IMG/VR virus record: IMGVR_UViG_3300022935_000010
Location: 1-64,000 of that record
DNA length: 64,000 nt
Source: a virus
Reading direction: 5' to 3' (one strand)
Made by a program: the position numbers and the translations under genes
Notes under the pieces: model-generated
Databases searched by the model: none
The model's input: only the letters and a program-made list of their open reading frames with translations
Told to the model about the DNA's origin: nothing
In this document: one piece after another, positions 1 through 36,159 of the stretch
How positions within the stretch are numbered: position 1 is the stretch's first letter
How the letters are laid out: each line of letters begins with the position of its first letter

Positions 1-1
1 T

Positions 2-2367
2 TCTTCTGGTTCTTCTGGTTCTTCAGGATCTTCAGGATCTAGTGGTTCTTCAGGATCTTCAGGATCATCAGGTTCTTCGGGTTCTTCGGGTTCTTCGGGT
101 TCTTCAGGATCTAGTGGCTCTTCAGGATCTTCAGGAACTTCAGGATCCTCAGGATCTAGTGGCTCTTCAGGATCTTCTGGATCTTCAGGAACATCAGGTT
201 CTTCTGGTTCTTCAGGATCTAGTGGTTCTTCTGGATCTTCAGGATCATCAGGATCTAGTGGCTCTTCAGGATCTTCAGGATCTTCAGGTTCCTCAGGAAC
301 TTCAGGATCTAGCGGTTCTTCTGGATCTAGCGGTTCTTCTGGATCTTCAGGAACCTCAGGTTCTTCTGGTTCTTCAGGTTCTTCAGGATCTAGTGGTTCT
401 TCTGGATCTAGTGGTTCTTCTGGATCTTCAGGGTCAAGTGGATCTTCAGGATCGTCAGGAACCTCAGGATCTTCAGGATCTAGTGGTTCTTCAGGATCTT
501 CAGGGTCTTCAGGAACTTCAGGATCATCAGGTTCTTCCGGATCTTCAGGATCATCAGGATCTAGTGGCTCTTCAGGATCTTCAGGATCTTCAGGTTCCTC
601 AGGAACTTCAGGATCTAGCGGTTCTTCAGGATCTAGCGGTTCTTCTGGATCGTCAGGAACCTCAGGTTCTTCTGGTTCTTCAGGTTCTTCAGGATCTAGT
701 GGTTCTTCTGGATCTTCTGGATCTTCAGGATCATCAGGATCTAGTGGTTCTTCTGGATCTTCAGGATCATCAGGATCTAGTGGCTCTTCAGGATCTTCGG
801 GATCCTCAGGTTCTTCAGGTTCTTCAGTATCTAGTGGTTCTTCTGGATCTTCTGGATCTTCAGGATCATCAGGATCTAGTGGTTCTTCTGGATCTTCAGG
901 ATCATCAGGATCTAGTGGCTCTTCAGGATCTTCGGGATCCTCAGGTTCCTCAGGAACTTCAGGATCTAGCGGTTCTTCAGGATCTAGCGGTTCTTCTGGA
1001 TCGTCAGGAACCTCAGGTTCTTCTGGTTCTTCAGGATCTTCAGGATCTTCGGGATCTAGTGGTTCTTCTGGATCTTCAGGATCATCAGGTTCTTCGGGTT
1101 CTTCGGGTTCTTCAGGATCTAGTGGCTCTTCAGGATCTTCAGGAACTTCAGGATCATCAGGATCTAGTGGCTCTTCAGGATCTTCAGGTTCCTCAGGAAC
1201 TTCAGGATCTAGCGGTTCTTCAGGATCTAGCGGTTCTTCTGGATCGTCAGGAACCTCAGGATCCTCAGGTTCTTCAGGTTCTTCAGGTTCTTCAGGTTCT
1301 TCAGGATCTAGTGGTTCTTCTGGATCTTCAGGATCATCAGGTTCTTCGGGTTCTTCAGGGTCTAGTGGCTCTTCAGGAACTTCAGGATCTAGCGGTTCTT
1401 CAGGATCATCAGGTTCTTCGGGTTCTTCGGGTTCTTCAGGATCTAGTGGCTCTTCAGGATCTTCAGGAACTTCAGGATCATCAGGATCTAGTGGCTCTTC
1501 AGGATCTTCAGGATCATCAGGTTCTTCAGGCACAAGTGGATCTTCAGGATCATCAGGTTCTTCAGGATCATCAGGTTCTTCAGGCACAAGTGGATCATCA
1601 GGTTCCTCTGGTGTATCTGGAGCCTCTGGAACTTCAGGTTCTAGTGGATCTTCCGGATCATCAGGATCTAGTGGTTCTTCTGGTTCATCAGGAACTTCAG
1701 GATCCTCAGGTTCATCAGGTTCTTCAGGATCTAGCGGTTCTTCAGGAACATCAGGTTCTTCTGGATCTAGTGGTTCTTCTGGATCATCAGGATCTTCAGG
1801 TTCTTCAGGCTCTAGTGGTTCTTCTGGATCTTCAGGAACTTCAGGATCTTCAGGTTCATCAGGATCTAGTGGATCTTCAGGATCTTCAGGTTCCTCTGGA
1901 TCATCAGGATCATCAGGATCGTCAGGTTCTTCAGGTTCTTCAGGTTCTTCAGGTTCTTCAGGTTCTTCAGGCACGAGTGGATCTTCTGGATCTTCAGGAT
2001 CGTCAGGTTCTTCTGGTTCTTCAGGTTCTTCAGGATCTAGTGGTTCTTCTGGATCTTCAGGGTCAAGTGGATCTTCAGGATCTTCAGGTTCCTCAGGAAC
2101 CTCAGGATCTAGCGGTTCTTCAGGATCTAGTGGTTCTTCTGGATCTTCAGGGTCAAGTGGATCTTCAGGATCTTCAGGGTCTTCAGGAACATCAGGTTCT
2201 TCTGGATCTAGTGGTTCTTCTGGATCATCAGGATCTTCAGGTTCTTCTGGTTCTTCTGGTTCATCAGGTTCCTCTGGTTCATCAGGTTCCTCTGGTTCTT
2301 CAGGATCATCAGGTTCTTCAGGAACATCAGGTTCTTCAGGATCTAGTGGTTCTTCCGGAACATCAGG
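2..2367 (+). repeat. Coding tandem repeat, about 260 (Ser/Thr-Ser-Gly) triplets, 9-nt unit such as TCTTCAGGA
   Basis: Directly visible; further shorter blocks at about 2762-2961 and 3317-3600. Confidence 0.97.
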
Positions 2368-4324
2368 TATTGATGGCACAAATTATTTAGGATTCTTTTC
2401 TGAATACGATTCAAGCAGTACGAACATTACAGTAGCACCATCATCCCAACAATTTGTATTAAATAATGCAAGCTTAAACAGTGTTACAGGTGCTGCGATT
2501 AGTACAACTTCTACTAATTCAGTAAATGTTACTAAGACGTTAGATATCTTCGATGAGATAGCAAACCCTGGTCCAAGAAGAGGAATTATACAGTTCTTAA
2601 CCCCAGGAAATTCTCAATTTGCATCATATTATGTAACCAGTGCAACAAAAAATCCTCCAACTAATAGTACATGGTTTCAACTAGGTTTAGAGTATATAGA
2701 TAGAGGTGGATCTGGATCCCTTACCGATGGTGAAGATTATTGGGTAGGACTTAATGTAATTGGTGATGCAGGAACATCAGGATCTTCTGGATCGTCAGGC
2801 TCTAGTGGTTCTTCAGGTTCTTCAGGAACCTCAGGATCCTCAGGCTCTAGTGGTTCTTCTGGATCTAGTGGTTCTTCAGGCTCTAGTGGATCTTCGGGAA
2901 CATCAGGCTCTAGTGGTTCTTCGGGATCATCAGGATCATCAGGAATTTCTGGTACTTCAGGATATGTAATAGACAATACCTGGGATTGGACAACATCCGG
3001 AGGATCTCCAGCAAGTGGAGAAGCTAGAAATAGCTCCGGATCTAATTTACCTGCATCACCCTTTGTCTTATTGATAAATGAAAACCCCATATCAGGACCT
3101 AATTATGTAAACATTTTTAATAGTTTAGGCAACGGAACCCTATGGAAAATAACGCGATTAGTTGGTGGATCTAACGTACTTTATTATACGCAAATCTCAG
3201 TTGGTGTTGATAACGGATCATATTGGGAATTTGATTTAGATCATTTGTCAGGTACAGGATGGTCGCCTACTACAGGTGATGATATATTAATTCAAATTGC
3301 AGGAGTAGGAGCACCAGGAAGTTCTGGAACATCAGGTTCTTCTGGATCATCAGGCTCTAGTGGTTCCTCAGGATCTAGTGGTTCTTCAGGATCCTCAGGA
3401 TCCTCAGGTTCTTCTGGATCATCAGGCTCTAGTGGTTCTTCTGGTTCATCAGGAACATCAGGATCGTCAGGCTCTAGTGGTTCCTCAGGATCTAGTGGTT
3501 CTTCAGGAACATCTGGTTCTTCTGGATCATCAGGAAGTTCTGGTTCTTCTGGATCCTCAGGAAGTTCTGGTTCTTCTGGATCATCAGGAAGTTCTGGTGT
3601 TGGAGGTAGTGTAGATAGATTTAATGGGTATGATGATGGTACTTTAAATGTAACTAATTTCTCTACCCAAGGTACCACAGCAGATATTAAAGTTTCGCAT
3701 ACACAATATGGTTTAGACCCTTCAACCAACGCCTTAATTTACGATCATACGAATGATACTGCTCTTATTGAGATTCTGCAAGATGGATATTATATAATTA
3801 GCTCTAATGTAAATTACATTGTTGGAGCAAGTAGGAGTGGTTCTAGATCAACAATGCAGCAAAATCTCTATATTAATGGTGCTGTTGTAGATTCTTCTAA
3901 GTCTGATACTTACTCAAGAGGACAGCTTTATAATGATGAAATTAATACGCTAACCACTGGTTATTTCTATTTAAATACGAATGATACTATAAGAATGGAG
4001 GTAAATGCAGCACGGATGGATAGTAGCGGTACTGGAACTGTAGCGATCACTGATGCTGTTATTAATATTGCTCGGATATCAGGAGCAGCTGCTGCTTCTG
4101 GTTCTGACGGAGCACAGGGAGCAGCAGGAGCAGCAGGAGCACAAGGAGCACAAGGAGCAGCAGCAACAATTCCGTGTGATGGAACGTGTACATCTACTGA
4201 AGGTGGTAACCCAACATTGTACTACGGGACTAATCCTGACGTTTATCTTGCAGAACCTAATGTGTGGTTCCGAATTGATTGTGATGGAACAACATATAAC
4301 GTTCCTGGATACTCTTGTGAGTAA
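2..4324 (+). CDS. Giant Gly-Ser-Ser repeat collagen-like fibre protein (5'-truncated, >1440 aa) with interspersed globular domains and a C1q/BclA-like C-terminal domain
   Basis: Frame starting at nt 2 reads SSG SSG SSG... with no stop, continues through IDGTNYLGFFSEY... (2368-2760) and joins in frame the track ORF 3071..4324; Gly at every third residue; C-terminal DGYYIISSNV...LYINGAVV...FYLNTNDTIRMEV resembles the C1q/TNF fold. Confidence 0.85.
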   Translation, partial: SSGSSGSSGSSGSSGSSGSSGSSGSSGSSGSSGSSGSSGSSGSSGTSGSSGSSGSSGSSGSSGTSGSSGSSGSSGSSGSSGSSGSSGSSGSSGSSGSSGTSGSSGSSGSSGSSGSSGTSGSSGSSGSSGSSGSSGSSGSSGSSGSSGSSGSSGTSGSSGSSGSSGSSGSSGTSGSSGSSGSSGSSGSSGSSGSSGSSGSSGTSGSSGSSGSSGSSGSSGTSGSSGSSGSSGSSGSSGSSGSSGSSGSSGSSGSSGSSGSSGSSGSSGSSGSSGSSVSSGSSGSSGSSGSSGSSGSSGSSGSSGSSGSSGSSGSSGSSGTSGSSGSSGSSGSSGSSGTSGSSGSSGSSGSSGSSGSSGSSGSSGSSGSSGSSGSSGSSGSSGTSGSSGSSGSSGSSGSSGTSGSSGSSGSSGSSGSSGTSGSSGSSGSSGSSGSSGSSGSSGSSGSSGSSGSSGSSGSSGTSGSSGSSGSSGSSGSSGSSGSSGSSGSSGTSGSSGSSGSSGSSGSSGSSGTSGSSGSSGSSGSSGSSGTSGSSGSSGVSGASGTSGSSGSSGSSGSSGSSGSSGTSGSSGSSGSSGSSGSSGTSGSSGSSGSSGSSGSSGSSGSSGSSGSSGTSGSSGSSGSSGSSGSSGSSGSSGSSGSSGSSGSSGSSGSSGSSGTSGSSGSSGSSGSSGSSGSSGSSGSSGSSGSSGSSGSSGSSGTSGSSGSSGSSGSSGSSGSSGSSGSSGSSGTSGSSGSSGSSGSSGSSGSSGSSGSSGSSGSSGSSGSSGSSGSSGTSGSSGSSGSSGTSGIDGTNYLGFFSEYDSSSTNITVAPSSQQFVLNNASLNSVTGAAISTTSTNSVNVTKTLDIFDEIANPGPRRGIIQFLTPGNSQFASYYVTSATKNPPTNSTWFQLGLEYIDRGGSGSLTDGEDYWVGLNVIGDAGTSGSSGSSGSSGSSGSSGTSGSSGSSGSSGSSGSSGSSGSSGTSGSSGSSGSSGSSGISGTSGYVIDNTWDWTTSGGSPASGEARNSSGSNLPASPFVLLINENPISGPNYVNIFNSLGNGTLWKITRLVGGSNVLYYTQISVGVDNGSYWEFDLDHLSGTGWSPTTGDDILIQIAGVGAPGSSGTSGSSGSSGSSGSSGSSGSSGSSGSSGSSGSSGSSGSSGSSGTSGSSGSSGSSGSSGSSGTSGSSGSSGSSGSSGSSGSSGSSGSSGSSGVGGSVDRFNGYDDGTLNVTNFSTQGTTADIKVSHTQYGLDPSTNALIYDHTNDTALIEILQDGYYIISSNVNYIVGASRSGSRSTMQQNLYINGAVVDSSKSDTYSRGQLYNDEINTLTTGYFYLNTNDTIRMEVNAARMDSSGTGTVAITDAVINIARISGAAAASGSDGAQGAAGAAGAQGAQGAAATIPCDGTCTSTEGGNPTLYYGTNPDVYLAEPNVWFRIDCDGTTYNVPGYSCE

Positions 4325-4336
4325 TAGATTAATGCT

Positions 4337-4591
4337 ATGAAGGAAGTACCTAAGGTAGACATGTCACTTTTACAAATGGCCAATAATTTTGTTGGAGGTG
4401 AAGAAATTTCGAGAATTGAAATTATCAATAAGGAGGGTATTGTTTTAAATACATATGATTATTCCAAATCTACTGGTGATCATATTCCGAGTGTGATTTT
4501 TTCTATGTCCGATATTCTAGGTAATTCTAATTCGATAGTTAGTAACCCCAATACAACTCAAAAGGTTAATGAATTCCCAGGATTACTTTAA
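4337..4591 (+). CDS. Hypothetical protein
   Basis: 84-aa ORF filling the gap after the fibre gene. Confidence 0.5.
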   Translation: MKEVPKVDMSLLQMANNFVGGEEISRIEIINKEGIVLNTYDYSKSTGDHIPSVIFSMSDILGNSNSIVSNPNTTQKVNEFPGLL

Positions 4592-4597
4592 ATAATT

Positions 4598-4625
4598 GAA
4601 AACCTTTGGATTGTTTGGCGTATAA
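4598..4625 (+). promoter_or_regulatory. Putative ECF-type (middle) promoter GAAAA-N18-TATAA
   Basis: Same spacing as the GAAAC-N18-TAHAA motif found at 8 other intergenic sites; 26 nt upstream of the glycosylation cluster. Confidence 0.6.
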
Positions 4626-4650
4626 GAATAAATCATTATTGTAATTCTAT

Positions 4651-5229
4651 ATGAAGGTCCAAACAATCATTATAGACGATTTCTATAAAAATCCCGATGA
4701 TGTAAGATCATTTGCTTTAGCCCAAGAATTTAGTGCTCGTGGAAATTACCCCGGACAAAGAACGGTATCTTTTTTAGCAGATAACGTAAAGAATTCTATT
4801 CAGGATATAATTAGACCTTATGGCGGAGAGGTTACTTGGTGGGGTGATGATTCAACTGGGTCCTTTCAATATACAGTAGCTGCTGACAGATCCTGGATCC
4901 ATAGCGATGACACAACAGATTGGGCAGGAGTTCTTTATTTAACACCAGATGCACCACTTTCTGCAGGTACTGGTCTTTTTAGGCATAAAGAAACTGGTCT
5001 TAATAGGTGGAGAAATTCTGAGCATCCTGATGAGGTAGCTAAAGCAGCCCCTGTTAATATAGAATCCCAGGATATGACCAAATGGGAAATGGTTGATAAA
5101 ATTGGAAATATTTATAATAGGCTGGTAATTTATCGGGGTGATTTATTTCACGTTTCTTTGGACTATTTCGGACTGGATAAAAATGACGGTAGGCTATTCC
5201 AGGTTTTCTTTTTCAACACGGAAAAATAA
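4651..5229 (+). CDS. 2OG-Fe(II) oxygenase (DUF6445-like)
   Basis: IIIDDFY..PD..R N-terminus, HxD (WIHSD), GVLYLTP, distal His (LFHVS) and Arg (GRLFQVFF). Confidence 0.75.
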   Translation: MKVQTIIIDDFYKNPDDVRSFALAQEFSARGNYPGQRTVSFLADNVKNSIQDIIRPYGGEVTWWGDDSTGSFQYTVAADRSWIHSDDTTDWAGVLYLTPDAPLSAGTGLFRHKETGLNRWRNSEHPDEVAKAAPVNIESQDMTKWEMVDKIGNIYNRLVIYRGDLFHVSLDYFGLDKNDGRLFQVFFFNTEK

Positions 5230-6528
5230 ATGCTAATTGTTAAAAGACCGACTGCTATTGTTTTTGGTTGGGATAAGCCTAGTGGCAATTATGAATTCGT
5301 TACCACAGTTTATTCTTCGGTAGAAAATAACATGCAGTGGGTGAATTTGATTTCTATTGGCATAATTGATGTAGACAATAATGTACTATCGGATTTAAAC
5401 ATCAAACACACTCCTGATGTTTTCGTTTTTATTGGTAGTAAGTATGATCAAATACATTCGCATTTTGATAGAATGGTTATAGAATACGATCAAATCCCAG
5501 ATCCTGACACACTTGCTAATGATGTGGTGGTTAAGGCAGTAGACGTTCGTACAAACCCACACATTCCTCTTTTCAGCATTTTTACCCCTGCTTTCAAAAC
5601 GGGGGAGAGAATATTTAGAACTTATCAAGGAATAGTAGATCAGAGTGAAACAGATTGGGAGTGGGTTGTTGTAGACGATTCGCCTTCAGACCATAACGAC
5701 TTATGGCATGATCTTCAAAAGATAGCTTCCAGGGATTTAAGGGTTAAACCATATAGAATAACACCAAATACCGGGGGATTTGTAGGAATGGCTAAGAAGA
5801 GGGCCTGCTCTTTGTCTAGTGGTAAATGGTTGGTAGAACTTGACCATGATGACTATTTATTGGATAATTGCTTGGCTAAAATTAAATCTGCTAGCGATAA
5901 ATTCCCTGACGCTGGATTCATTTACAGTGACTGTACAGAAATGTTTGAGAATGGGAAATTTAGAAGATATGGTAGCAAAGATGAAAAATACGATGGTAAT
6001 TTCTATGGTGTTGAAGGCAACAACTTTAACTTTGGGTATTCTGGACACTCTTGGGTTAATATAAAGGGTAAAAGATATCTAACACATCACTATCCCTCTA
6101 TAAATCCGATTACTATTAGATTTAATATTTCAATGCCAAATCATGTTAGGGCTTGGAGGTCTGATATTTATAAAAAAATCGGAGGGCATGCTGAAAGCCT
6201 ACCAATAGCGGATGATCTAGAATTAATCATTAAAACTTTTCTCGAAACAAGGATAGTCCATATTAAGGATTTGCTATATATTCAATATAGTAATGGCTCC
6301 GGGACTGTTAGCTATAACTCTTTCGAAATTAATAGAATTTCTAGAATTTTGAAAGAGAAATATAACAAAGCAATACATAACAGGATAATTGATTTGGGGT
6401 TCCATGATTGGGAGTGGGACGAAGAAAAGAGAACTAATAGGCACCAAGAGGCTATAATGAATAGTGACCTTAGTGATATAAAGTTCTGGGAGGATGAACA
6501 GGTTTTGAATTATGTATATGATGAATAA
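5230..6528 (+). CDS. Glycosyltransferase family 2 with N-terminal extension
   Basis: FSIFTPAF, WEWVVVDDS, ELDHDD (DxD), ADDLEL motifs. Confidence 0.85.
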   Translation: MLIVKRPTAIVFGWDKPSGNYEFVTTVYSSVENNMQWVNLISIGIIDVDNNVLSDLNIKHTPDVFVFIGSKYDQIHSHFDRMVIEYDQIPDPDTLANDVVVKAVDVRTNPHIPLFSIFTPAFKTGERIFRTYQGIVDQSETDWEWVVVDDSPSDHNDLWHDLQKIASRDLRVKPYRITPNTGGFVGMAKKRACSLSSGKWLVELDHDDYLLDNCLAKIKSASDKFPDAGFIYSDCTEMFENGKFRRYGSKDEKYDGNFYGVEGNNFNFGYSGHSWVNIKGKRYLTHHYPSINPITIRFNISMPNHVRAWRSDIYKKIGGHAESLPIADDLELIIKTFLETRIVHIKDLLYIQYSNGSGTVSYNSFEINRISRILKEKYNKAIHNRIIDLGFHDWEWDEEKRTNRHQEAIMNSDLSDIKFWEDEQVLNYVYDE

Positions 6529-7714
6529 GAGGGCTAAAATTTGCATGAATGCCATGGTAGCTAATGAATCCCGTGTTATTCTGAGAATGCTTGAATCCTG
6601 CTATCGATACATCGATTATTGGGTTATACAAGATAACGGCTCTACTGATGGTACCCAAGGTCTTATTAGAAATTTCTTTTCTCAAAAGGGGATACCTGGA
6701 TACCTGTATGAAACTGAATGGCAATATCCTGGATTTAATCGGGATCACACTTTGCAAGAATGTTTAAAAGCTGATCATGGTTGTGATTGGATTTTAAGGA
6801 TGGATGCAGATGAACAACTGGCTGTTGATGATAATTTTGATTGGTCTTTGATTAACGACACATCTATTCAAAGTTTTAATATTACCGCTCAGGACCCGGG
6901 TGGAATATATTATAGAACTTGGCTTTGGAATGCAAAATTGCCATGGTATTTCAAGCACGACAAAAGGCATGAGACAATTTATCTTTCTGGTCACAAAGAA
7001 GGGGAGGGTAATTTTCAGGTAATTAACTTACCCCGTGGGTTTAGACATATCATTACAAATGACGGTAAAACTTGGGAAGACCCTTTAAAGTTTTTAAATG
7101 ATGCTCTTTTACTTGAAGCTGATCAGGTTTGTTCTGGGAAGATAAAAGAGGATGATTACCATCTTTTCTATATTGGTAAAAGTTATGCTGATATTTATCA
7201 GAATGGAAATCTCCCGTTTGGCAAAAATCATAGTGATGAATACGCTAGAAGGACTATATATTACCTTGAACATTATGTGAGAAGGAAATTTCCAGTTTAT
7301 GATAATGACTCACCTCCTACAGTGTTTGATGAGATGTGTTACCTTTCTATAGTTCTTATCGGACAAGCACATAGATTTATAGGAAATCGAGATCTCGCAT
7401 ATAAAAGGCTTGAACAAGCTGACTGGTATTGTCCGGATAGAAACGAGCACTGGGTTATTTTGGCAGAGATGCTCTTGGAGGACCAAAAATTTCATAGGAT
7501 GTATGAAATAACATCAATGCTCATGAGAGATGATAGGATATGCCCATTTCCTAGATTTCATTTTTTACTCTGGACCTCTTGTTACAAGGATACCTCTGAT
7601 TATGTAGAATTTCTGTACAAAGAATCGATGAAATTTGTGGAACTAATTGAAACCCGAACAGACCAAAATAATTTAAAAACTATGGAAGACGCTTACTTTC
7701 CTGGTGAAATTTAG
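6521..7714 (+). CDS. Glycosyltransferase family 2 with helical (TPR-like) C-terminus
   Basis: ICMNAMVANE, VIQDNGSTDGT, WILRMDADE, RHE motif; start taken at MNKRAK. Confidence 0.85.
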   Translation: MNKRAKICMNAMVANESRVILRMLESCYRYIDYWVIQDNGSTDGTQGLIRNFFSQKGIPGYLYETEWQYPGFNRDHTLQECLKADHGCDWILRMDADEQLAVDDNFDWSLINDTSIQSFNITAQDPGGIYYRTWLWNAKLPWYFKHDKRHETIYLSGHKEGEGNFQVINLPRGFRHIITNDGKTWEDPLKFLNDALLLEADQVCSGKIKEDDYHLFYIGKSYADIYQNGNLPFGKNHSDEYARRTIYYLEHYVRRKFPVYDNDSPPTVFDEMCYLSIVLIGQAHRFIGNRDLAYKRLEQADWYCPDRNEHWVILAEMLLEDQKFHRMYEITSMLMRDDRICPFPRFHFLLWTSCYKDTSDYVEFLYKESMKFVELIETRTDQNNLKTMEDAYFPGEI

Positions 7715-7724
7715 ATAAAAACAT

Positions 7725-8000
7725 ATGGAAAACAATCAAACAAAAATAACATCTGAGGAGTTGGAAAAAATTAACTCCTTAAGAACCGAGATTTTAGAAA
7801 ATGTTGAATCGATAGGTAGACTGAATATTAGAAAGCATTTTCTGGTAAAAGAACTCGAGCCAATAGAGGCAACTCTGATATCATTGCTTCAAAAGTCAGA
7901 AGAACTGGACACACAGGAGAAGGATGTAATAGATGAGATCATTCAGAAATATGGGGAAGGCCAGTTAAATTTTGAAACTGGTATTTACACTAAAGAATAA
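7725..8000 (+). CDS. Small coiled-coil hypothetical protein
   Basis: 91-aa ORF ending KYGEGQLNFETG. Confidence 0.65.
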   Translation: MENNQTKITSEELEKINSLRTEILENVESIGRLNIRKHFLVKELEPIEATLISLLQKSEELDTQEKDVIDEIIQKYGEGQLNFETGIYTKE

Positions 8001-8003
8001 TAA

Positions 8004-9056
8004 ATGAAAGAGATTGAGGCTTTAAGAAAAACCAAATATGAATTGGTAAGAACAATCAATTCTATACAAAAAACATTGGATGAAAAAACCGGTGGAAAAA
8101 AGAGAATTCTTTTCGTTGCTCCACATCTTTCAACTGGAGGAATGCCTCAATACCTGTACAAAAAAATAGAGTCTTTTAACGAAGAAGCTGAAGTTTATTG
8201 CATACAATATAACAATACATCGGAGGAATATGTTGTACAGAGAAATAGGATAAAGGAAAGGATTGGTTCTAGATTCCATTGTTTGGGGGAAGATAAGACA
8301 GAGATACTTGATTTAATTGATAGAATTTACCCTGACGTTATCCATTTTGATGATTTTGTTGAATTTTTTGTAGACCCGTCGATTATTGACAAAATATATG
8401 CACTGGATAGACCATATTGCATAGTTGAAACTTGCCACAGCTCAAATATTTCCCCATCAGATAAGATATATTGTCCGGATAAACTGGTTATGGTAAATCA
8501 ATGGATGTGTAACAAATTTAAAGATCTTGGTGTTCCGACAGACATTTTAGAATACCCAATTGAGGATTTTAAAAGACCTGATAGAAAATCTGCCTTAGAG
8601 AGTCTTGGTCTAGATCCAAACAAAAAGCATGTAATAAATATCGGTTTATTCACACCAGGTAAAAACCAAGGTGAGCTTATAGAGCACGCTAGAAATCTCA
8701 TTGACTACCCAATACAATTTCACTTTATAGGAAATACTGCACCAAATTTTCAAAGCTATTGGGAACCACTTTTAGAAACACTACCTGATAATTGCAAATT
8801 ATGGGGTGAAAGAGATGATGCGGATCTTTTCTATAGTGCGGCTGACCTTTTTGTTTTTACCTCTAATTGGGAGTTAAATCCCATTGTTATAAAGGAGACT
8901 CTTTCATGGAAACTACCGATTTTAATGAGAAGACTTGATCCATACATGGATTCTTATGATCAGAATCCATTGGTAAGCTATCTTAGCCCTAGCGGTGCTT
9001 TTTTAGATATACCTGCAGATACGGAAAAAATTAAGGACATATTAGATTTAAGATGA
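8004..9056 (+). CDS. Glycosyltransferase family 4 (GT-B)
   Basis: ILFVAPHLSTGGMP, GLFTPGKNQ, ADLFVFTSNWELNPIVIKE motifs. Confidence 0.85.
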   Translation: MKEIEALRKTKYELVRTINSIQKTLDEKTGGKKRILFVAPHLSTGGMPQYLYKKIESFNEEAEVYCIQYNNTSEEYVVQRNRIKERIGSRFHCLGEDKTEILDLIDRIYPDVIHFDDFVEFFVDPSIIDKIYALDRPYCIVETCHSSNISPSDKIYCPDKLVMVNQWMCNKFKDLGVPTDILEYPIEDFKRPDRKSALESLGLDPNKKHVINIGLFTPGKNQGELIEHARNLIDYPIQFHFIGNTAPNFQSYWEPLLETLPDNCKLWGERDDADLFYSAADLFVFTSNWELNPIVIKETLSWKLPILMRRLDPYMDSYDQNPLVSYLSPSGAFLDIPADTEKIKDILDLR

Positions 9057-10234
9057 AAAATAGAGGCTTAAAAGTTTATGAGAGCTTAAAAAAAGCGGAC
9101 TTTGTAAGGTTTAGACACCCCTACACTTTTGAACTTACTTTTGATAATGGTGCTAATGTTGATTGCATAGGACCAAATAATGCTAAACCTTGTACAATAA
9201 AGTTCATGGATTTAAGTACTGGTACATATGGGTATACAGGTGAAATTTCTGCTGGACTTTTTACAAGGCTTTATAGAAAATGGTTTACTCCTTGGAGATT
9301 AGAGGCTTACGATAATGATGAATTAATCTACCAGAGAGATCTGGAAGACGTAATTAGTGAGGAAAAAGTTTGTATTAGTGTTGATAGCAACTCACTTGGT
9401 GACACTCTAGCTTGGATGCCCGTCATAGAAAAATTCAGAAGAAAATATGACTGTGACCTCTATGTTACTACATTTTGGAATGAGCTTCTTGCTAACTATT
9501 ATCCTTCCATAAGGTTTAGATCACCCGGGTCAAGAGAGATCAATACAAAAATTACATTTGGTGTGGGGTGGTATGACGAGAATGACCGCGATAGACATAG
9601 GAGGGATCCTAGAGCTATTTCGTTACAGCAGGTTGCTGGGGATATTTTAGGAATAGATGTTGAAGGTGACCTATTAAACGAAAGTGTACCACTAACAATA
9701 CAAAACACAAACTCAACTATTGACGGAAAGTATGTGTGTTTGGCTATGGATTCTACCGCTAATGCTAAACATTGGCACTATGAGGACGGCTGGCAGAAGA
9801 TTACCGATTATTTAAATTCAATAGGTTATAAGGTTGTTGTTGTACAAAAGCAGGGAACAAATTTAAATGGAGTGATTGACAAAACTGGAGATATTGATAT
9901 TTTACAAAGAGCCATTGACATTTATCACTCCGATTTCTTTATTGGAATAGGGTCTGGTCTAAGCTGGCTTGCTTGGTCACTACACAAGCCAGTTGTAATG
10001 ATATCTGGTTTTTCGGATCCCGCGTGTGAATTTTCTACTAAAAACTATAGAATCATAAACCGCGATGTCTGCCATGGTTGCTTTAGTGATACCTCAATAA
10101 AATTTGATAAGGGGGATTGGAATTGGTGTCCGAGGTTAAAGGATACCGAAAGGATGTTTGAATGTACAAAAACAATTACCCCAGAGGTTGTTCAAACCTA
10201 TATCGACGATCTGATACAAAATCACCTATCTTAA
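9053..10234 (+). CDS. TibC/Aah-like protein O-heptosyltransferase (BAHT family, GT-B)
   Basis: SLGDTLAWMP catalytic motif, FFIGIGSGLSWLAW, VVMISGFS and four-Cys iron finger VCHGC...WNWCPR...FECTK. Confidence 0.8.
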   Translation: MKNRGLKVYESLKKADFVRFRHPYTFELTFDNGANVDCIGPNNAKPCTIKFMDLSTGTYGYTGEISAGLFTRLYRKWFTPWRLEAYDNDELIYQRDLEDVISEEKVCISVDSNSLGDTLAWMPVIEKFRRKYDCDLYVTTFWNELLANYYPSIRFRSPGSREINTKITFGVGWYDENDRDRHRRDPRAISLQQVAGDILGIDVEGDLLNESVPLTIQNTNSTIDGKYVCLAMDSTANAKHWHYEDGWQKITDYLNSIGYKVVVVQKQGTNLNGVIDKTGDIDILQRAIDIYHSDFFIGIGSGLSWLAWSLHKPVVMISGFSDPACEFSTKNYRIINRDVCHGCFSDTSIKFDKGDWNWCPRLKDTERMFECTKTITPEVVQTYIDDLIQNHLS

Positions 10235-10251
10235 CCTCTTTTATTTCTACG

Positions 10252-10259
10252 GATATATA
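10252..10259 (+). promoter_or_regulatory. Putative late promoter GATATATA
   Basis: Octamer recurring upstream of structural genes (15 copies found). Confidence 0.75.
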
Positions 10260-10303
10260 AACATACAGACCGAGCTTTGTCTGTTAATAATATCTTGTAG
10301 ATA

Positions 10304-12859
10304 ATGGCTTTTTACCCAGAAAATAGATTTCCAAAAAAAGGTATCCCCGTTTATAACGGCAACGGCGATCAGAGGGATCTTTCGGATCCTAGATTTAGAT
10401 ACCAAGACAATTTGGAGAATACTACCAAGGTTTTTCACCAGAGTACAGATAACTATTTTGGAACCACTGGAGCTGCTATGGCACGTGCTGAGCAACTTGG
10501 TTGTAATGGTTATCACACAGCTCTTGCTGACGATGGGGTTTACTATTACTTACCATGTTCTGATGCTACCTGGTATGCTGAAAGAATACAGCAATTCGAA
10601 AGCTCATTAAATTTCACATACATAGGTAATTATAGGGTTCTCACTTGGGATAGCCCATTTAACTATGTACAAGCCTTCAATGGGTGGATAATAGAAACAG
10701 CAGGTGCTGTTTTGGGTGATCCTGTAAATCTTGGTGATCCAACAGCAGCTATTCCAAATGACATTGCAATTGATTTTAGATATTCTGTTGACGGGAAAAG
10801 TTGGTCCCTTTGGGCTAATGTTGGAACTGCATTAACTGGATTTTCTCAGGGTTATACCTCCAACAACGATTCGACAATCTTCTCAATTCCGCTTGATCCT
10901 TCAAAATCATTTTACCCGGAATTTAGATTTACTTCCGTTGTAGTAAATACGGACGGAACACTGGCTTATGAGACAGATGAACCTATAGATCCTTCAATAG
11001 TAATCCTTGATTTCGATCTTGATCTTACCTATGCTACTGGACCTAGTGGACCTTCTGGTTCAATAGATAACTTGGTTATTAATAGACCTGTACCAAATTG
11101 CTCTAATGAGAAGTCAAACAGACCAGTTGTTTTTGATGATTGCAACTACACTTTTAATCCCTATGCAATAAACAAGGCTGTTAACCTGTATAAGGATTTA
11201 AGCTTGGTTGTAAACAAGGTATTTGGGTTTGAGACAAATTATTATTCAGTGCAACCACAAGCTAGAGGTAAAGACGTAGTGTTGAAGGAGTATACTTTAT
11301 TTGATGTTGTAGATGAACAATGTGTGAAGGTAATGGTTCCTTCAAATCAATTTCCAGATAACCGAACAAATTATGATCCCTTCGGAATCCAGTTTGACGA
11401 ACCGTTCGAGATTCATATAGATAAGACCTATTTCGAAAACATTTTTGGAAGAGGCTCACAACCAAGGAAGAGAGATATTATTTACTTCCCTTTAACCAAT
11501 AGGATCTATGAAATAAATTCTACCTACTTGTTCAGGGATTTCATGTATTCTCCGGTTTACTACAAAATAGAGCTTAAAAAATATAGTCCTAAGTCTAATA
11601 CGTATTTCAAAGACCCTGCTTACAAAGAGGAATTAGATGGAATTGCACTTACTACAGAAAAGCTATTTGGTGCAGAGGTTGAAGCTGAAGAGCAAAAAAT
11701 AGCTAAGCCAGAGCAATACTCCGATAGTACGCAAAGAAGACAAGAGGACCCAACCAGGTCTTATATCTATAAGAATCTTCCTATAGTTGGGTATGATCTC
11801 AATAACAACTGGACAATAGTGTTTAACAACTACTACGATATGTCGGATGCTTTTGTTTCTGATTCAGAATTCGTATATCAGCCTAACAAGTATCGAGAAG
11901 CACTTAGGTATAAAAACAGACCTCTATTGGAGAGCGATGGTGAGGTATCCTACACCTGTTGGTTTAGTTTGAAGAACTATATTAATGAGGATAGCTTGGC
12001 TAAAAAACCATACTCTCCAGCACCAATCACAAAAGTCTCAGAGGATGCTAACCAAATTTTATACAGCTCTCACCCATATAAACACAATTTAACCCCATTT
12101 AGGCAATTTTCGGATAACCCGGAAGGGTATGTTGCAATTAGTACTGATGCTAACCATTCGGGAGGATTCAAGGTTCTAACTACTCCTGATGAGTTTAAAT
12201 TTTCTGTTGCAAATCCAAATCTTCCTTATGCTAAGAATACTGCAAATTGGAAAATGCAAAAGGCACAAGCAAGGAATCTAATTGATGGAACCTATATCGA
12301 TGGCTCTGGTTTGTTAAAAGGCATGAGGATAGACTTAGTGCATTCTGGTACCAACGATGCTGCAAATAATAATTATGTACAGCAAGGAAGCATTGAGATT
12401 ATCTTAAACGATCTTACGTATGATTCCAGATTGCAATTTACTCCAGAGCAGGGAGAGTGGTATGGATTGGTTGTTAATATAAGTAACAAGTATAAGCAGA
12501 TGGGAATTAACATCTGGAAAATGTCGTATGATCCAACAAATCCAGGTGCACAACAATCATCAGATTTAGTTAAAGTGCACGAAGATTATAGGACGTTAAC
12601 CAAATCTTACATTTTTGATGCTCCCTCTGATATTGAGACAAACGTAAACAACCCATTCTATGGGACGGATAATAACGCTTACAAGATTTACACATCCCCG
12701 CTCCTTTTATCGAATGTAAGACTGTTTAAGAACATGATAGATATTGATAAACAATCAATTGTCCTTAACCAGAACACTGTAAGGGATGAACAACTAGCAT
12801 ATATTATAGATAACGCTAAACCACAATTGATCCTACCTAAATTCGCAAGAAATAGGTAA
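10304..12859 (+). CDS. Neck protein (T4 gp14-like core) with N- and C-terminal extra domains
   Basis: FGIQFDEPFEIHIDKTYFE...PRKRDIIYFPLTNRIYEI resembles gp14; position upstream of terminase genes. Confidence 0.6.
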   Translation: MAFYPENRFPKKGIPVYNGNGDQRDLSDPRFRYQDNLENTTKVFHQSTDNYFGTTGAAMARAEQLGCNGYHTALADDGVYYYLPCSDATWYAERIQQFESSLNFTYIGNYRVLTWDSPFNYVQAFNGWIIETAGAVLGDPVNLGDPTAAIPNDIAIDFRYSVDGKSWSLWANVGTALTGFSQGYTSNNDSTIFSIPLDPSKSFYPEFRFTSVVVNTDGTLAYETDEPIDPSIVILDFDLDLTYATGPSGPSGSIDNLVINRPVPNCSNEKSNRPVVFDDCNYTFNPYAINKAVNLYKDLSLVVNKVFGFETNYYSVQPQARGKDVVLKEYTLFDVVDEQCVKVMVPSNQFPDNRTNYDPFGIQFDEPFEIHIDKTYFENIFGRGSQPRKRDIIYFPLTNRIYEINSTYLFRDFMYSPVYYKIELKKYSPKSNTYFKDPAYKEELDGIALTTEKLFGAEVEAEEQKIAKPEQYSDSTQRRQEDPTRSYIYKNLPIVGYDLNNNWTIVFNNYYDMSDAFVSDSEFVYQPNKYREALRYKNRPLLESDGEVSYTCWFSLKNYINEDSLAKKPYSPAPITKVSEDANQILYSSHPYKHNLTPFRQFSDNPEGYVAISTDANHSGGFKVLTTPDEFKFSVANPNLPYAKNTANWKMQKAQARNLIDGTYIDGSGLLKGMRIDLVHSGTNDAANNNYVQQGSIEIILNDLTYDSRLQFTPEQGEWYGLVVNISNKYKQMGINIWKMSYDPTNPGAQQSSDLVKVHEDYRTLTKSYIFDAPSDIETNVNNPFYGTDNNAYKIYTSPLLLSNVRLFKNMIDIDKQSIVLNQNTVRDEQLAYIIDNAKPQLILPKFARNR

Positions 12860-25418: not shown

Positions 25419-25940
25419 ATGGCAAAGTCAAAAAAACAAACACAGCCAAAAGTAGTAGAACTAGATGCTGACCAACTTGCAGATTCAGTGGGTGAAGAAG
25501 CTCTTTCTCGTTTAAATGAGGGAAGGATTAAAGCTGCTGAGGAAAACCTAGAAAATGCAAAAAAGAGAGTAGCTACCAAAGTTTATGCAGTCCAGTTTGA
25601 ATCAATGGATCACATAGATAGATTTATCAGTTTTATGGAAAATGAGGCAGAATGGAAAGAAAAGGAGTCTCTTGGCGTTATTGAAATTTGTAAGGTTTTG
25701 GATAATCTAAAATCTGATGGCATTAAGAACAATATACTTTACTTACAAGCTTTGCCTTTAGAAGCAAGTCACTATTTTATATCTAAGCAAAGTGGTAAAG
25801 GACTTAAAGAAGCTAAGGAATTTATTTCCCTTTTGAAGCCTTTTGAACAAGGCCTGGAATCTGCAAAAGCTGATGCAAGAGAGATTCAGGATTTAGAAAA
25901 AGAACTCGCCGCAGCTCAACAGGGGCTTGAATTAGCCTAG
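25419..25940 (+). CDS. Hypothetical protein
   Basis: 173-aa ORF with A-rich leader. Confidence 0.7.
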   Translation: MAKSKKQTQPKVVELDADQLADSVGEEALSRLNEGRIKAAEENLENAKKRVATKVYAVQFESMDHIDRFISFMENEAEWKEKESLGVIEICKVLDNLKSDGIKNNILYLQALPLEASHYFISKQSGKGLKEAKEFISLLKPFEQGLESAKADAREIQDLEKELAAAQQGLELA

Positions 25941-32942: not shown

Positions 32943-34553
32943 ATGGCCGGATTTAACGAAAATCAAGAAGGAAGCCCAATATTCCAGAGAATACGAGAGT
33001 CTGTAAAGTCTCTTAGTAACTTTGGTATGAGATATGGTGATATGGTGATTAAGAACTCGCAAGCTATCGGGTCGATAGAAGCTGAGTTCATGAAAAAGCA
33101 AGCTATTGACGATGAAAGCTTGCTTTATTCTTTAGGAAGGCAAGACACTACAACCAGGCAGTTTATTAGTTATTATGATAAAGATTATGCTGGTAAAAGG
33201 GATTATCTAAGAAAGTTTGCTTTAAATCCTGAAATTGAGTACATCCTGGATACCGTTTGTGATGAAGCTATAACTTTCGATCCCCAAAACTTCTTCGCAC
33301 ATCCTGCATTCCTAAACTTAACTGACGTAAAGGACAAAGTAAAGGATAGAATCGACGAAAACTTTAAAAAGCTGTACGACATGTTCGGCTTTACTGATGA
33401 TATAAGTGCTTGGCAATACTTCAGGCAATTGATGGTTGATGGATTCCTTGCCTTTGAGATTGTATATAATGACAAGGGTAAGGAGATAATAGGATTTAAG
33501 GAATTAGATGCTACAACTCTAATGCCTTCTGTTGAAAAACAGCCAGACGGAACATATCTAAATGTTTGGTATCAGTATCCTAATGATATTAACAAGAGAA
33601 GGATGCTCTATGATTCTCAGGTTATTTATATTTCTTTTGCCAAAGGTAATACAGTTTCTCGGGTTAGTTATGTTGAAAGACTTATTAGGCCTTACAACAT
33701 TCTAAGAATTATAGAATACACCAGGGTTATTTGGTCTGTAATGAACGCATCTTTTAGAATGAAGATGACGGTACCAATTGGATCGAGGTCACCTCAAAAG
33801 TCAATGCAGACCTTAGGTGAATTGATGAGTATCTACAAAGAAGATATTAGGTTTAATGATGAGAGCGGGGAATTAACTGTAGATGGTAGACCTAAAATAC
33901 AGTTCTACAAAAATTACCTTATGCCTTCTGGTGTAAATGGTACTCCAACTATAGAGCCTATAAATAATGCTGGACCAAACCTTAACGACCCTCAACCGCT
34001 TGCTTACTTTTATGACAAGCTGGTTCAAGAATCGAAGGTTCCTTTTTCTAGATTCCAGGGTCCTGACGGCGGATCGATTGGAAATTATTCAAATGGCGCT
34101 GAAGGACTTGATAAGGAAGAAATAAGATTTGCCAAGTTTATTACTAGGCTTAGATCTATTTTCCAAGATGTCCTTGTTAAGCCACTTTGGATACAGATGT
34201 GTAAAGACTTCCCCGAGCTGGAGAAGGATTATTTGTTCAAGAGTCAGTTGGGCTTGGAATTTGTTTCTGATAATCCGTTTAGGATAAACCAGGAGATAGA
34301 AACCATGCTTAAAAAGAAGGAGCAAATAGATGGCATGTACACTTTAACCGACGACTCCGGTGAGCCCTTCTTCTCTTTAGCTTATTTAATTGAATCCCAT
34401 CTGGGTATGAATGCTGATGATATTAAAGGTAATAAGGAGGCGATTCAAAAAAGGAAGGAAGAAGAAGCTAAAAAGGCTGAAGAAGAAAAGGATGAAGATG
34501 AAGCACAGGAACCCGCAGAGGAATCAACGGAGGAAGCCCCTCCTCAAGAATAA
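32943..34553 (+). CDS. Portal protein 1 (T4 gp20-like)
   Basis: PEIEYILDTVCDEAI, FRQLMVDG, SYVERLIRPYNILRIIE, EEIRFAKFITRLRSIF. Confidence 0.88.
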   Translation: MAGFNENQEGSPIFQRIRESVKSLSNFGMRYGDMVIKNSQAIGSIEAEFMKKQAIDDESLLYSLGRQDTTTRQFISYYDKDYAGKRDYLRKFALNPEIEYILDTVCDEAITFDPQNFFAHPAFLNLTDVKDKVKDRIDENFKKLYDMFGFTDDISAWQYFRQLMVDGFLAFEIVYNDKGKEIIGFKELDATTLMPSVEKQPDGTYLNVWYQYPNDINKRRMLYDSQVIYISFAKGNTVSRVSYVERLIRPYNILRIIEYTRVIWSVMNASFRMKMTVPIGSRSPQKSMQTLGELMSIYKEDIRFNDESGELTVDGRPKIQFYKNYLMPSGVNGTPTIEPINNAGPNLNDPQPLAYFYDKLVQESKVPFSRFQGPDGGSIGNYSNGAEGLDKEEIRFAKFITRLRSIFQDVLVKPLWIQMCKDFPELEKDYLFKSQLGLEFVSDNPFRINQEIETMLKKKEQIDGMYTLTDDSGEPFFSLAYLIESHLGMNADDIKGNKEAIQKRKEEEAKKAEEEKDEDEAQEPAEESTEEAPPQE

Positions 34554-34563
34554 GTAATAAAGG

Positions 34564-36159
34564 ATGGCAGGATTTTTAGATTACGTAGCAGAAAGATCTT
34601 TCCTTGGGAATCTTTATAAGAATTTATCCAAGGTGGGGAGATTTGGTATGGAGTACGAAGACATGGTTATTCGTAACTCCCAAGCTATTGGTGCTACAGA
34701 ATCTAATTTCTTTAATGAGCAAGGTACAGGATTCACTGAGAATAATGCTTTTTATTGGACTCTTGGTTATCAAGATACTAAGGTAAGAAAGTATATAGCA
34801 TATTTCGATAAGGACTATTTAGGCAAAAGAGACTTCCTTAGGAAATTTTCCCTTAACGGCGAAATTGATTTTATCTTAGATACACTTACAGACGATGCTA
34901 TAAATTATGATGACAAGAATTTTATTGGGTATCCATCTCTTTCTAATATAGACCTAAAGCCTAATATTATAGATAAACTAGACGAAAACTATAGAAACAT
35001 GTATATGCTTTTTGGTTTTCAACAGGGAATACTAGCTTGGCAATATTTTAAGCAATTTCTTATAGATGGATTTCTTGCTTTTGAAATCGTATATTCCACC
35101 GACGGTAAAAAAATAGTTGGTTTTAAAGAGCTAGACCCTACTTCATTGCAACCTGCTACACAACCTCAACCAAATGGTGAGTATCAACAAATATGGATTC
35201 AGTATCCTGGTGATAGCAAGATGACCAGAAATCTTAAAAGCGAGCAGGTTATCTATATTTCTTACGCAAAGGGTAATACTATATCTAGGGTAAGCTATGT
35301 AGAACGTTTAATTAGATCCTATAATATTCTAAGAATCATGGAAAACACCAGGGTTATATGGAATGTTATGAATGCATCATACAGACTAAAATTTGTAATT
35401 CCTGTGGGTTCCCAATCTCAACAAAAGGCAATGCAGACATTGGGACAGCTTATGTCTATTTACAAGGAAGAAATGGAAATAAACGATTCTTCGGGTGAAC
35501 TCACTGTAAATGGTAGACCGAAGGTTCAATTCTATAAGAACTACTTATTTCCGGAAAAAGATGGGCAATCTCCCCAAATTGAAACATTAGATCCTAATGG
35601 TCCTGATTTCAATGTAATGGATAACGTAATTTATTTCTACAATAAGCTTAAACAGGATTCAAAGATACCATATGCAAGGTTTGCTTTCAGAAACGGAACT
35701 CCTGCTAATTATCAAATTAGCATCGACCAATTGGAAAGGGATGAGATTAGATTTGAGAAATTCCTAACAAGGCTCAGATCTATTTTCCAAGAAATATTGG
35801 TGAAACCCTTGTATATACAAATGTGTCTTGATTTTCCTGAATTATCTAAGGACAGATCTTTTAAATCAAATTTAGGCCTAACTTATGTTAGGGAGAATCT
35901 TTTTGAAGAATTTATACAGCTTCAGAATTATACTAAGAGAGCACAGTTTGTAAATGATCTTGGTGAGATGAAGCAGAAGATTGGTGAAGAGGAAGAACCT
36001 TATTTTGATAAGAATTTCCTAATAAAGAGGTATCTTGGACTTACGATGGACGAGTATAAGAAAAACGAGAAGTATAAGGAGATGGAGCAGAAAAAGGCCG
36101 AGGAAAAGGCTAAGGAAGCTGGAGGTGAGGAGGAATCTTCAGATAGTTTCACACTATAA
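34564..36159 (+). CDS. Portal protein 2 (paralogue)
   Basis: Same motifs: EIDFILDTLTDDAI, SYVERLIRSYNILRIME, RDEIRFEKFLTRLRSIF. Confidence 0.88.
   Translation: MAGFLDYVAERSFLGNLYKNLSKVGRFGMEYEDMVIRNSQAIGATESNFFNEQGTGFTENNAFYWTLGYQDTKVRKYIAYFDKDYLGKRDFLRKFSLNGEIDFILDTLTDDAINYDDKNFIGYPSLSNIDLKPNIIDKLDENYRNMYMLFGFQQGILAWQYFKQFLIDGFLAFEIVYSTDGKKIVGFKELDPTSLQPATQPQPNGEYQQIWIQYPGDSKMTRNLKSEQVIYISYAKGNTISRVSYVERLIRSYNILRIMENTRVIWNVMNASYRLKFVIPVGSQSQQKAMQTLGQLMSIYKEEMEINDSSGELTVNGRPKVQFYKNYLFPEKDGQSPQIETLDPNGPDFNVMDNVIYFYNKLKQDSKIPYARFAFRNGTPANYQISIDQLERDEIRFEKFLTRLRSIFQEILVKPLYIQMCLDFPELSKDRSFKSNLGLTYVRENLFEEFIQLQNYTKRAQFVNDLGEMKQKIGEEEEPYFDKNFLIKRYLGLTMDEYKKNEKYKEMEQKKAEEKAKEAGGEEESSDSFTL
36132..36159 (+). 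promoter_or_regulatory. Putative ECF-type promoter variant GGAAT-N18-TATAA
   Basis: Same spacing as the GAAAC motif, upstream of heptose kinase gene. Confidence 0.45.

Follow-up and report, generated by a model that had tools for sequence, protein, structure and literature searches.

What does an autotransporter-type heptosyltransferase do in a phage, beside the gene of a giant collagen-like fibre? The locus that raises this question occupies positions 2 to 10,234 of the stretch analysed here (the window), the first 64 kb of the 107,115-bp IMG/VR virus record IMGVR_UViG_3300022935_000010 (CheckV completeness 39%), in which nearly all genes lie on the + strand. By sequence and predicted fold the enzyme is a bacterial autotransporter heptosyltransferase (BAHT: TibC/Aah family, NCBIfam TIGR04414), and the only proteins known to be heptosylated by this family are autotransporter adhesins of Proteobacteria. 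An earlier, sequence-only reading of the window held that the phage makes adenosine diphosphate (ADP)-heptose, primes serines of its own fibre with heptose and extends them with further glycosyltransferases, from loci that share one promoter motif. The enzyme, the fibre and their co-occurrence across phages came through our analysis; the phage-made donor and the shared promoter did not. On balance we lean towards the view that the BAHT and a partner glycosyltransferase of family GT4 glycosylate Ser/Thr of the fibre in the cytoplasm, most likely starting from ADP-heptose of the host.

A stand-alone member of the TibC/Aah family

The product of 9053–10234 scores 279.5 bits against TIGR04414 (cut-off 200, E 4e-83; 279.1 bits in the genome scan) and is about 40% identical to TibC (4RAP; E 1e-57). 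The models of lipopolysaccharide (LPS) heptosyltransferases are weak on it, with 24.6 bits for TIGR02193 against a cut-off of 185.3 and 16.7 for PRK10964 against 437; its Pfam GT9 match amounts to 26 bits, and PHROGs has no family for it. The AlphaFold model (predicted local distance difference test, pLDDT, 89; predicted template modelling score, pTM, 0.87) has strands over residues 25–96, and Foldseek aligns it with TibC at template modelling (TM) scores of 0.82–0.85 (E 5e-33) over 379–386 columns, the N-terminal β-barrel included, while WaaC and WaaF, at 0.45–0.53, rank below every TibC chain. The sequence-only reading had likened the protein to TibC/Aah from its LGD motif and four cysteines, had suggested a hidden Markov model (HMM) search and a structure prediction, and had named a grouping with the LPS enzymes of family GT9 as what would speak against it. 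On both counts, sequence profile and modelled structure, the window enzyme is a real member of the TibC/Aah family and not an LPS GT9 enzyme.

The functional residues of TibC were taken from the literature, where Asp110 is catalytic, Thr226 and Lys230 serve the β-phosphate, Arg286 the adenine and Trp305 the heptose O4, and Cys339, Cys342, Cys358 and Cys370 are the iron ligands (PMC4358343). We mapped them by hand onto the 4RAP alignment and read their conservation from an alignment of 40 viral BAHT homologues, 36–86% identical. Asp110 corresponds to D117 in the SLGD motif of the window enzyme and is invariant in the viral set. Thr226, Lys230, Arg286 and Trp305 are all four identical in the window enzyme; the first two and Trp305 are again invariant, while Arg286 is kept in 10/40 homologues, all in or near the window clade, and is Thr, Val or Ile in the other 30. 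The four-Cys iron finger of TibC is matched by C340, C343, C359 and C371, invariant in the 40 and a putative iron-binding site.

Among 1.84 billion proteins, the family has 735 representatives at E ≤ 1e-30. In most relatives in the databases the BAHT domain forms the C-terminus of a fusion protein of 600–2000 amino acids (aa); the window enzyme stands alone. Around it lie a collagen-like fibre gene and a neck gene, with no adjoining autotransporter gene; the two Escherichia coli enzymes used as controls have an annotated autotransporter immediately downstream.

A collagen-like fibre made of Gly-Ser-Ser

The window opens inside the fibre gene, whose 5′ end is lost at the contig start. The visible part is laid out as follows.

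2–4324, + strand: giant collagen-like fibre, 3′ part, 1440 aa by translation; Pfam Collagen (PF01391) 86 bits
8–2383, + strand: main (GSS/GTS)n tract, the proposed acceptor; runs of 273 and 516 aa with a single VSS triplet between them
2384–2761, + strand: non-collagen insert 1, 126 aa, without Pfam or PHROG match
2762–2968, + strand: second G-S/T-S tract, 69 aa, from Gly-X-Y run analysis
2969–3307, + strand: non-collagen insert 2, 113 aa, from the same analysis; without PHROG match of note
3308–3613, + strand: third G-S/T-S tract, 102 aa, from the same analysis
3614–4324, + strand: distal fibre, with a 162-aa globular domain, a (GAQ/GAA) tract at 4100–4162 and a 53-aa four-Cys tail

The Ser-rich (GSS)n fibre of the sequence-only reading is real: 646 Ser, 84 Thr and 373 Gly among the visible residues. 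The Gly-X-Y register covers 981 residues in runs of 273, 516, 69, 102 and 21, contains 626 Ser/Thr and would measure about 280 nm if triple-helical. The fibre is thus collagen-like in its long register, with one VSS break in the GSS/GTS tract, and unlike collagen in lacking Pro/Hyp richness: X and Y are nearly all Ser/Thr, with just one Pro in the 981 residues. All six Ser codons are present, TCT being preferred at X and TCA at Y, so the repeat is maintained at the protein level and is old enough for its DNA to have diverged with the protein pattern retained. Apart from the fibre, the 107-kb record has no other large Ser/Thr G-X-Y tract.

The pattern (GGN WSN WSN)x7 has 279 matches on the + strand of the window fibre and none on the reverse. 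A reverse-strand open reading frame (ORF) at 1–2379, read as (PEE/PDE)n, was rejected as a by-product of the repeat, since only the + fibre frame continues through non-repeat domains. More generally, the repeat (window 1–2390) opens long frames in the second + frame and, Pro-Glu-Glu-like, on the reverse strand, which could mislead gene callers.

Searches of the globular parts of the fibre, where a C1q-like tip had been suspected, against PDB and PHROG gave nothing usable and no match of note. The four-Cys tail, which may be a trimerisation or tip module, is common to the relatives L003–L005, L009, L010 and L015; the tip differs in L011–L013. In L004, L005, L009, L010 and L015 the fibre terminates in a long (Gly-Ala-Gln)n tract in which Gly-Ala-Lys triplets recur regularly. 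They supply the X-Lys-Gly context used by collagen lysyl hydroxylases, which is suggestive beside a 2-oxoglutarate (2OG) oxygenase; the triplets of the visible window fibre contain no Lys.

The operon between fibre and neck

From 4651 to 10234, six genes are tightly packed, with gaps of −17 to +10 nucleotides (nt). They are listed here with the small ORF before them and the neck gene behind.

4337–4591, + strand: small ORF, 84 aa; no family match, conserved solely in close relatives
4651–5229, + strand: operon gene 1, protein of 2OG-Fe(II) oxygenase fold, DUF6445 (PF20043, 56.8 bits)
5230–6528, + strand: GT2 glycosyltransferase a (GT2a), 432 aa (PF00535, 42 bits); starts on the base after the DUF6445 stop
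6512–7714, + strand: GT2 glycosyltransferase b (GT2b), 400 aa (PF13704 and PF00535); 17-nt overlap with GT2a
7725–8000, + strand: small coiled-coil-like ORF, 91 aa; accompanies GT4-BAHT in this clade
8004–9056, + strand: GT4 (Glycos_transf_1; PF00534, 41 bits), the conserved partner of BAHT
9053–10234, + strand: TibC/Aah-family (BAHT) glycosyltransferase, stand-alone, 393 aa (TIGR04414)
10304–12859, + strand: T4-type neck/head-closure protein (PF11649; phrog_679)

The GT4 stop and the BAHT start overlap as ATGA; against PDB, the GT4 gave no match by sequence. The 2OG oxygenase that the sequence-only reading placed after the fibre is borne out by a triad, H84-x-D86...H167, at least 90% conserved, and by an AlphaFold2 model (pLDDT 93.7) of the double-stranded β-helix fold whose best Foldseek matches are 2OG oxygenases, among them the prolyl hydroxylases OGFOD1 and PHD2 as well as P4H and HygX (probability 1.0, TM 0.5–0.6). 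DUF6445 is abundant and conserved, with 3492 proteins at E ≤ 1e-5, the best 120 of them at 65–99% identity; it is far commoner than BAHT, and its role may therefore not be bound to the fibre. Of the glycosyltransferases read earlier as GT2, GT2 with tetratricopeptide repeats (TPR) and GT4, Pfam returns GT2 twice and GT4 but no TPR at E ≤ 1; the C-terminal half of GT2b looks helical-repeat-like by eye. The best PDB sequence match of GT2b is GmaR (E 2.7e-4), and there is a weak match to SunS.

On the 3′ side of the operon follow genes for a T4-type neck protein, large terminase, tail sheath and two portals. With the fibre on one side and neck, terminase, sheath and portal on the other, the operon sits within a morphogenesis module. 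In T4, wac, the gene for the whisker fibre, precedes the neck genes gp13/gp14, and since our fibre gene occupies the same place before the neck gene, this analogy suggests a neck or collar fibre. A scan of the operon for sigma-70 promoters and terminators did no better than on shuffled sequence. The two T4-type portal genes stand in tandem at 32943–36159; on a phage contig binned with Saprospirales (G118:C278:29195-32104) both portal matches fall in one 1084-aa frame, which may be a fused double portal.

BAHT genes and Gly-Ser/Thr-Ser repeats occur together

If the enzyme acts on the fibre, the two should travel together, a check that the sequence-only reading had named. BAHT relatives are encoded on 154 viral contigs; 80 loci, taken with as much as 10 kb of flanking sequence, were searched strictly for ORFs with 8 or more Gly-X-Y triplets in a row in which Ser/Thr fill at least 60% of the X and Y positions. 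Such a Gly-[ST]-[ST] repeat ORF lies in 45/80 loci at a median distance of 1.7 kb, in three placements relative to BAHT: most often downstream but on the opposite strand (30), otherwise on the strand of BAHT, either upstream (10) or downstream (5). Among the 15 BAHT clusters defined at 60% identity, 10 have at least one positive locus, or 11 counting the 230-kb relative G092. Of the 35 negatives, 24 have a cut flank, and the “negatives” of the window clade are contigs that start inside the fibre gene; G092 and G109 begin in the repeat itself. Many relatives' contigs start where the window does, 27–31 kb ahead of the portal. Evidently the repeat breaks metagenome assemblies there, and with breaks at a fixed place the fibre genes are systematically truncated in databases.

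For the reverse test, viral records were picked by a DNA pattern that encodes seven Gly-[ST]-[ST] triplets, with seven Gly-Pro-X triplets as control. A TIGR04414 match is present in 12/44 of the former and 0/47 of the latter (Fisher p = 7e-5; p = 0.034 for records of at least 40 kb only), and in 6/12 repeat-bearing records that are at least 60% complete. Taken together, these counts are strong leads, not proof.

The pairing extends to cells. In bacterial and archaeal assemblies, repeat ORFs accompany 15/49 BAHT loci, often small and directly beside the enzyme; the positive loci include Arenicellales, other gammaproteobacterial metagenome-assembled genomes (MAGs), Ignavibacteria and Lentimicrobiaceae. 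None of the more than 20 Burkholderiaceae BAHT loci has a Gly-[ST]-[ST] ORF. In a maximum-likelihood tree, E. coli Aah and an E. coli TibC-like enzyme join those of Burkholderiaceae and Selenomonadaceae in one autotransporter-linked clade (Shimodaira–Hasegawa-like approximate likelihood ratio test, SH-aLRT, 99), with repeat neighbours in 0/22 of its members versus 35/62 of the remaining rows; the window BAHT is placed outside it. A literature search found no paper on viral BAHT or on its pairing with collagen-like repeats, and megablast of the cassette against cultured phages gave no match.

One cultured phage has both elements under other labels. In Microcystis phage Mel-JY01 (L002, PP395634.1), a 1016-aa frame rich in Gly-Ser/Thr triplets lies on the + strand at 2–3049, where the record annotates a minus-strand hypothetical gene; at 4750–8430, a 1226-aa protein labelled just “methyltransferase FkbM” has the BAHT domain at its C-terminal end, and 1.7 kb separate this domain from a Gly-Ser/Thr repeat ORF.

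A constant pair with variable companions

A GT4 homologue (37–83% identical) lies upstream of BAHT on the same strand in about 66 of the 80 phage loci, whereas only the close clade has DUF6445, GT2a and GT2b. In the relative L449 (G092:C1, 230 kb), positions 4943–11674 carry instead a different GT4, an FkbM methyltransferase, a sulfotransferase, an adenosine 5′-phosphosulfate (APS) kinase and a small cytidylyltransferase-like (nucleotidyltransferase) gene. These tailoring genes stand between the fibre and the GT4-BAHT pair, in place of the 2OG oxygenase and GT2 genes, and the set hints at methylated or sulfated glycans with a phage-made supply of 3′-phosphoadenosine 5′-phosphosulfate (PAPS). 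We propose that GT4-BAHT is a fixed two-enzyme core with clade-specific tailoring. What sets the window phage apart is a BAHT that stands alone and has kept the adenine-contact Arg, the 2OG oxygenase with two GT2 enzymes, and the almost pure Gly-Ser-Ser tract.

Where the sugar donor could come from

One gene of the window bears on the supply of ADP-heptose.

36187–36957, + strand: HldE-domain-I-like PfkB sugar kinase, short form, 256 aa (TIGR02198, 130 bits against a cut-off of 345; phrog_8133, 241 bits)

The earlier identification of this gene as HldE kinase holds as far as a PfkB kinase with HldE domain I as its best model; the score stays far under that model's cut-off. The protein retains the N-terminal and GAGD motifs; its substrate may be heptose 7-phosphate. 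In close relatives the corresponding site behind the portals holds a full-length kinase (332–335 aa, 295–303 bits) that is only 29% identical to the short form. We considered an N-terminal truncation of the latter and rejected it, as the genome scan shows an internal gap instead.

Of 32 BAHT-positive phage records, 9 have HldE-kinase-like genes and 8 have weak adenylyltransferase-like ones; GmhA has no match in any of the 32, 8 of which are at least 90% complete. Supply by the host is plausible. The portal relatives of the window phage are Lak-type and other megaphages of Bacteroidota, and the phage is a large T4-type one, related to the Lak-type megaphages, with a host that is probably one of the Bacteroidota. 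Binning, which is weak host evidence, places a 75%-identical phage contig in a Saprospirales MAG whose own genes include GmhA-like (189 bits), HldE-I-like (304 bits) and HldE-II (193 bits, over cut-off) ones.

Weighing the explanations

We favour the following sequence of events. The phage encodes a very long Gly-Ser-Ser/Gly-Thr-Ser collagen-like fibre, and the translationally coupled GT4-BAHT pair would load its exposed Ser/Thr hydroxyls with sugar in the cytoplasm of the infected cell, before assembly. BAHT would most likely move heptose from host-supplied ADP-heptose, a donor that the HldE-kinase-like enzyme might top up, and GT4 and the clade-specific GT2 enzymes would afterwards lengthen the glycan or vary it. 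In this scheme the acceptor and the sugar, the order of the transfers and the triple helix itself are inferred, and so is the use of the coat, be it to stabilise the helix, to serve as a protease or hydration shield, or to adhere.

Several points weigh against fibre heptosylation. The case for it is built wholly from genomic evidence and structural prediction. Known BAHT substrates are β-helical autotransporter passengers, not Gly-X-Y tracts, and the (GSS)n tract could be flexible and disordered instead of a triple helix. About half of the reasonably complete repeat-bearing records are without BAHT, so the fibres do not need it; the Gly-Ser and Gly-Pro record sets differ in phage type and size, and the sampled loci come from related phages of similar waters, so that the counts are not phylogenetically independent. 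On the donor side, the match of the 36187 kinase comes in two pieces, skipping model positions 66–93 (about 30 positions), and stays below the HldE cut-off. The 107-kb record, 39% complete, has no match to GmhA, GmhB, HldE domain II (the adenylyltransferase) or HldD; with a kinase-like gene only, the claim that the phage itself makes ADP-heptose finds no support. In the enzyme, the position that governs the choice between D,D- and L,D-heptose is Pro300 in TibC, Ser in Aah and Gly in the window BAHT. Finally, the TibC thumb is a β-hairpin whose tip, Phe265/Val266, joins dimers into a dodecamer (PMC4358343); the thumb of the window BAHT is 9 residues shorter with the tip Thr-Asn, most viral homologues are likewise short, and the ring mechanism of TibC may therefore not apply here.

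In a rival reading the operon glycosylates the fibre by another chemistry, in which GT2b or GT4 primes Ser/Thr and BAHT elongates or uses a donor other than ADP-heptose. GT2b weakly resembles the protein O-/S-glycosyltransferases GmaR and SunS; the swap of R286 in 30/40 viral BAHTs and the variable position 300 suggest donor diversity; none of the BAHT-positive phages has a complete heptose pathway; and relatives exchange their accessory genes for a methyltransferase, sulfotransferase and APS kinase. Yet the GmaR and SunS matches are weak, R286, T226, K230 and W305 are all retained in the window BAHT, and it is GT4-BAHT that is the constant pair, with GT2a and GT2b restricted to the close clade; we regard this chemistry as rather unlikely. 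We give less credence still to a BAHT that targets some other phage or host protein, its association with the repeat being a product of shared descent and structural-gene clustering in one aquatic group of large phages. That one broad BAHT cluster, formed at 60% linkage, accounts for 45/80 loci would fit, as would the missing partner in 35/80 loci and in 32/44 repeat-bearing records, and LR756504 has a BAHT without a Gly-Ser/Thr repeat ORF within 20 kb. However, BAHT identities run from 36 to 86% with repeat ORFs in 10–11 of the 15 clusters, the gene arrangement varies, the same adjacency is seen in MAG contigs of several phyla, and many of the negatives are truncated contigs; all this makes such a coincidence improbable.

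The least probable account, which we think would be surprising, is that the operon acts during infection on the envelope of the host, remodelling LPS core, capsule or a surface protein, for example as a block to superinfection, and that its adjacency to the fibre is incidental. Heptose is chiefly an LPS sugar, enzymes of the GT2 and GT4 type typically serve in polysaccharide synthesis, the PHROG labels say “moron / host takeover”, and there is the Pfam GT9 match on BAHT. Against this, the enzyme goes with TibC and not with WaaC/WaaF, BAHT is found in 12/44 Gly-Ser/Thr records and in none of the Gly-Pro-X records, the pairing recurs in three gene arrangements and on cellular MAG contigs, and the operon lies within a morphogenesis block.

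Fibre glycosylation by GT4-BAHT, which we prefer, can be carried one step further. A widespread, undescribed branch of BAHT, always paired with GT4, would hyper-O-glycosylate the proline-free Gly-Ser/Thr-Ser rods of phages and of some bacteria and archaea; its sugars, here heptose, would replace hydroxyproline in holding the triple helix, giving “glyco-collagen” virion whiskers hundreds of nm long. Such rods would be the first BAHT substrates that are not autotransporters, and protein heptosylation would for the first time be encoded by a virus. We offer this wider picture tentatively, as a possibility that may well prove wrong.

Comparison with known systems

The closest precedents are TibC-TibA and Aah-AIDA-I of E. 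coli (PDB 4RAP/4RB4; PMC4358343). The phage enzyme has in common with them the family HMM, ~40% identity, the predicted fold and the key residues, and would share the cytoplasmic action on a substrate that is long, rod-like and rich in Ser and is the product of a neighbouring gene. It differs in having a collagen-like Gly-Ser-Ser fibre as its neighbour and not an autotransporter, in being encoded by a virus, in falling outside the autotransporter clade, in its truncated thumb and in its conserved GT4 partner, which is absent with Aah and TibC. The LPS heptosyltransferases WaaC/WaaF (GT9) resemble it in the GT-B fold, the ADP-heptose binding mode and the weak Pfam GT9 match; unlike it they are without the N-terminal barrel and the iron finger, and the profile score (24.6 bits against a cut-off of 185) and the TM scores given above are low.

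A precedent for the acceptor is the BclA type of collagen-like glycoprotein, O-glycosylated on Thr by a dedicated transferase (PMC7157674). The exosporium glycoproteins BclA/BclA3 of Bacillus and Clostridioides difficile (e.g., with SgtA; PMC7157674) have a collagen-like Gly-X-Thr stalk with a globular C-terminal domain. As proposed for the phage, a dedicated transferase, encoded nearby and active in the cytoplasm, O-glycosylates them on the hydroxy-amino acid of the triplet. There, however, the transferase is not a BAHT, and the substrate is a spore surface protein and not part of a virion. The BclA repeats, moreover, are Pro-containing GPT triplets, unlike the GSS of the phage fibre.

Viruses offer two parallels. 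Freeman et al. reportedly found in 2023 that glycosyltransferases encoded by mycobacteriophages decorate capsid and tail-tube proteins; phage transferases would thus modify the phage's own structural proteins in the cytoplasm there as proposed here, but the enzyme families, the host phylum and the acceptors differ (short C-terminal tracts there, hundreds of triplets here). Giant viruses such as Mimivirus combine viral collagen-like proteins with a viral 2OG oxygenase and glycosyltransferases (PMC4691112, PMC9614988), a set resembled by that of the window; they are eukaryotic viruses with hydroxylysine-linked sugars, whereas the key enzyme of the window phage is a BAHT and its visible tract is without Lys and all but without Pro.

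The promoter motif and the distal ORFs

The sequence-only reading tied the operon, the kinase and two distal genes into one dispersed system by a promoter motif. GAAAC-N17–19-TAHAA is indeed enriched in the window (8 matches against 2.7 expected) and, at 57799 and 61808, stands just upstream of the genes at 57846 and 61861; it does so equally at 25376, 31411, 38407 and 43185, before the genes at 25419, 31459, 38452 and 43217. Upstream of the operon gene at 4651 there is only a near-variant, and upstream of the kinase at 36187 a TATAAATA box instead. Because many non-glycan genes are also preceded by the motif, it does not link the glycan loci; it probably marks a general phage promoter class, not tied to glycosylation as such, and a single system behind one promoter finds no support.

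57846–58778, + strand: ORF with a language-model lead to GT-A-like clusters only; at most a candidate member of the system
61861–62529, + strand: ORF with a language-model lead to GT25-like clusters only; at most a candidate member of the system

Neither ORF has a Pfam, NCBIfam or PHROG match. Between them, at 59263–60666, lies a homologue of glutamine-dependent asparagine synthase (PF00733, 138 bits, with a GATase domain); such amidotransferases can amidate sugar acids.

Implications

If GT4-BAHT does glycosylate the fibre, the TibC/Aah family would gain a second, structurally unrelated class of substrate and a viral home. Sugars on the triplets could explain how stable rods are built from proline-free Gly-Ser-Ser tracts, and the compact enzymes could be used to glycosylate simple repeat peptides densely and site-specifically. 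Glycan-coated appendages would then be a feature of many abundant aquatic phages, with effects on adsorption, grazing, sinking and recognition.

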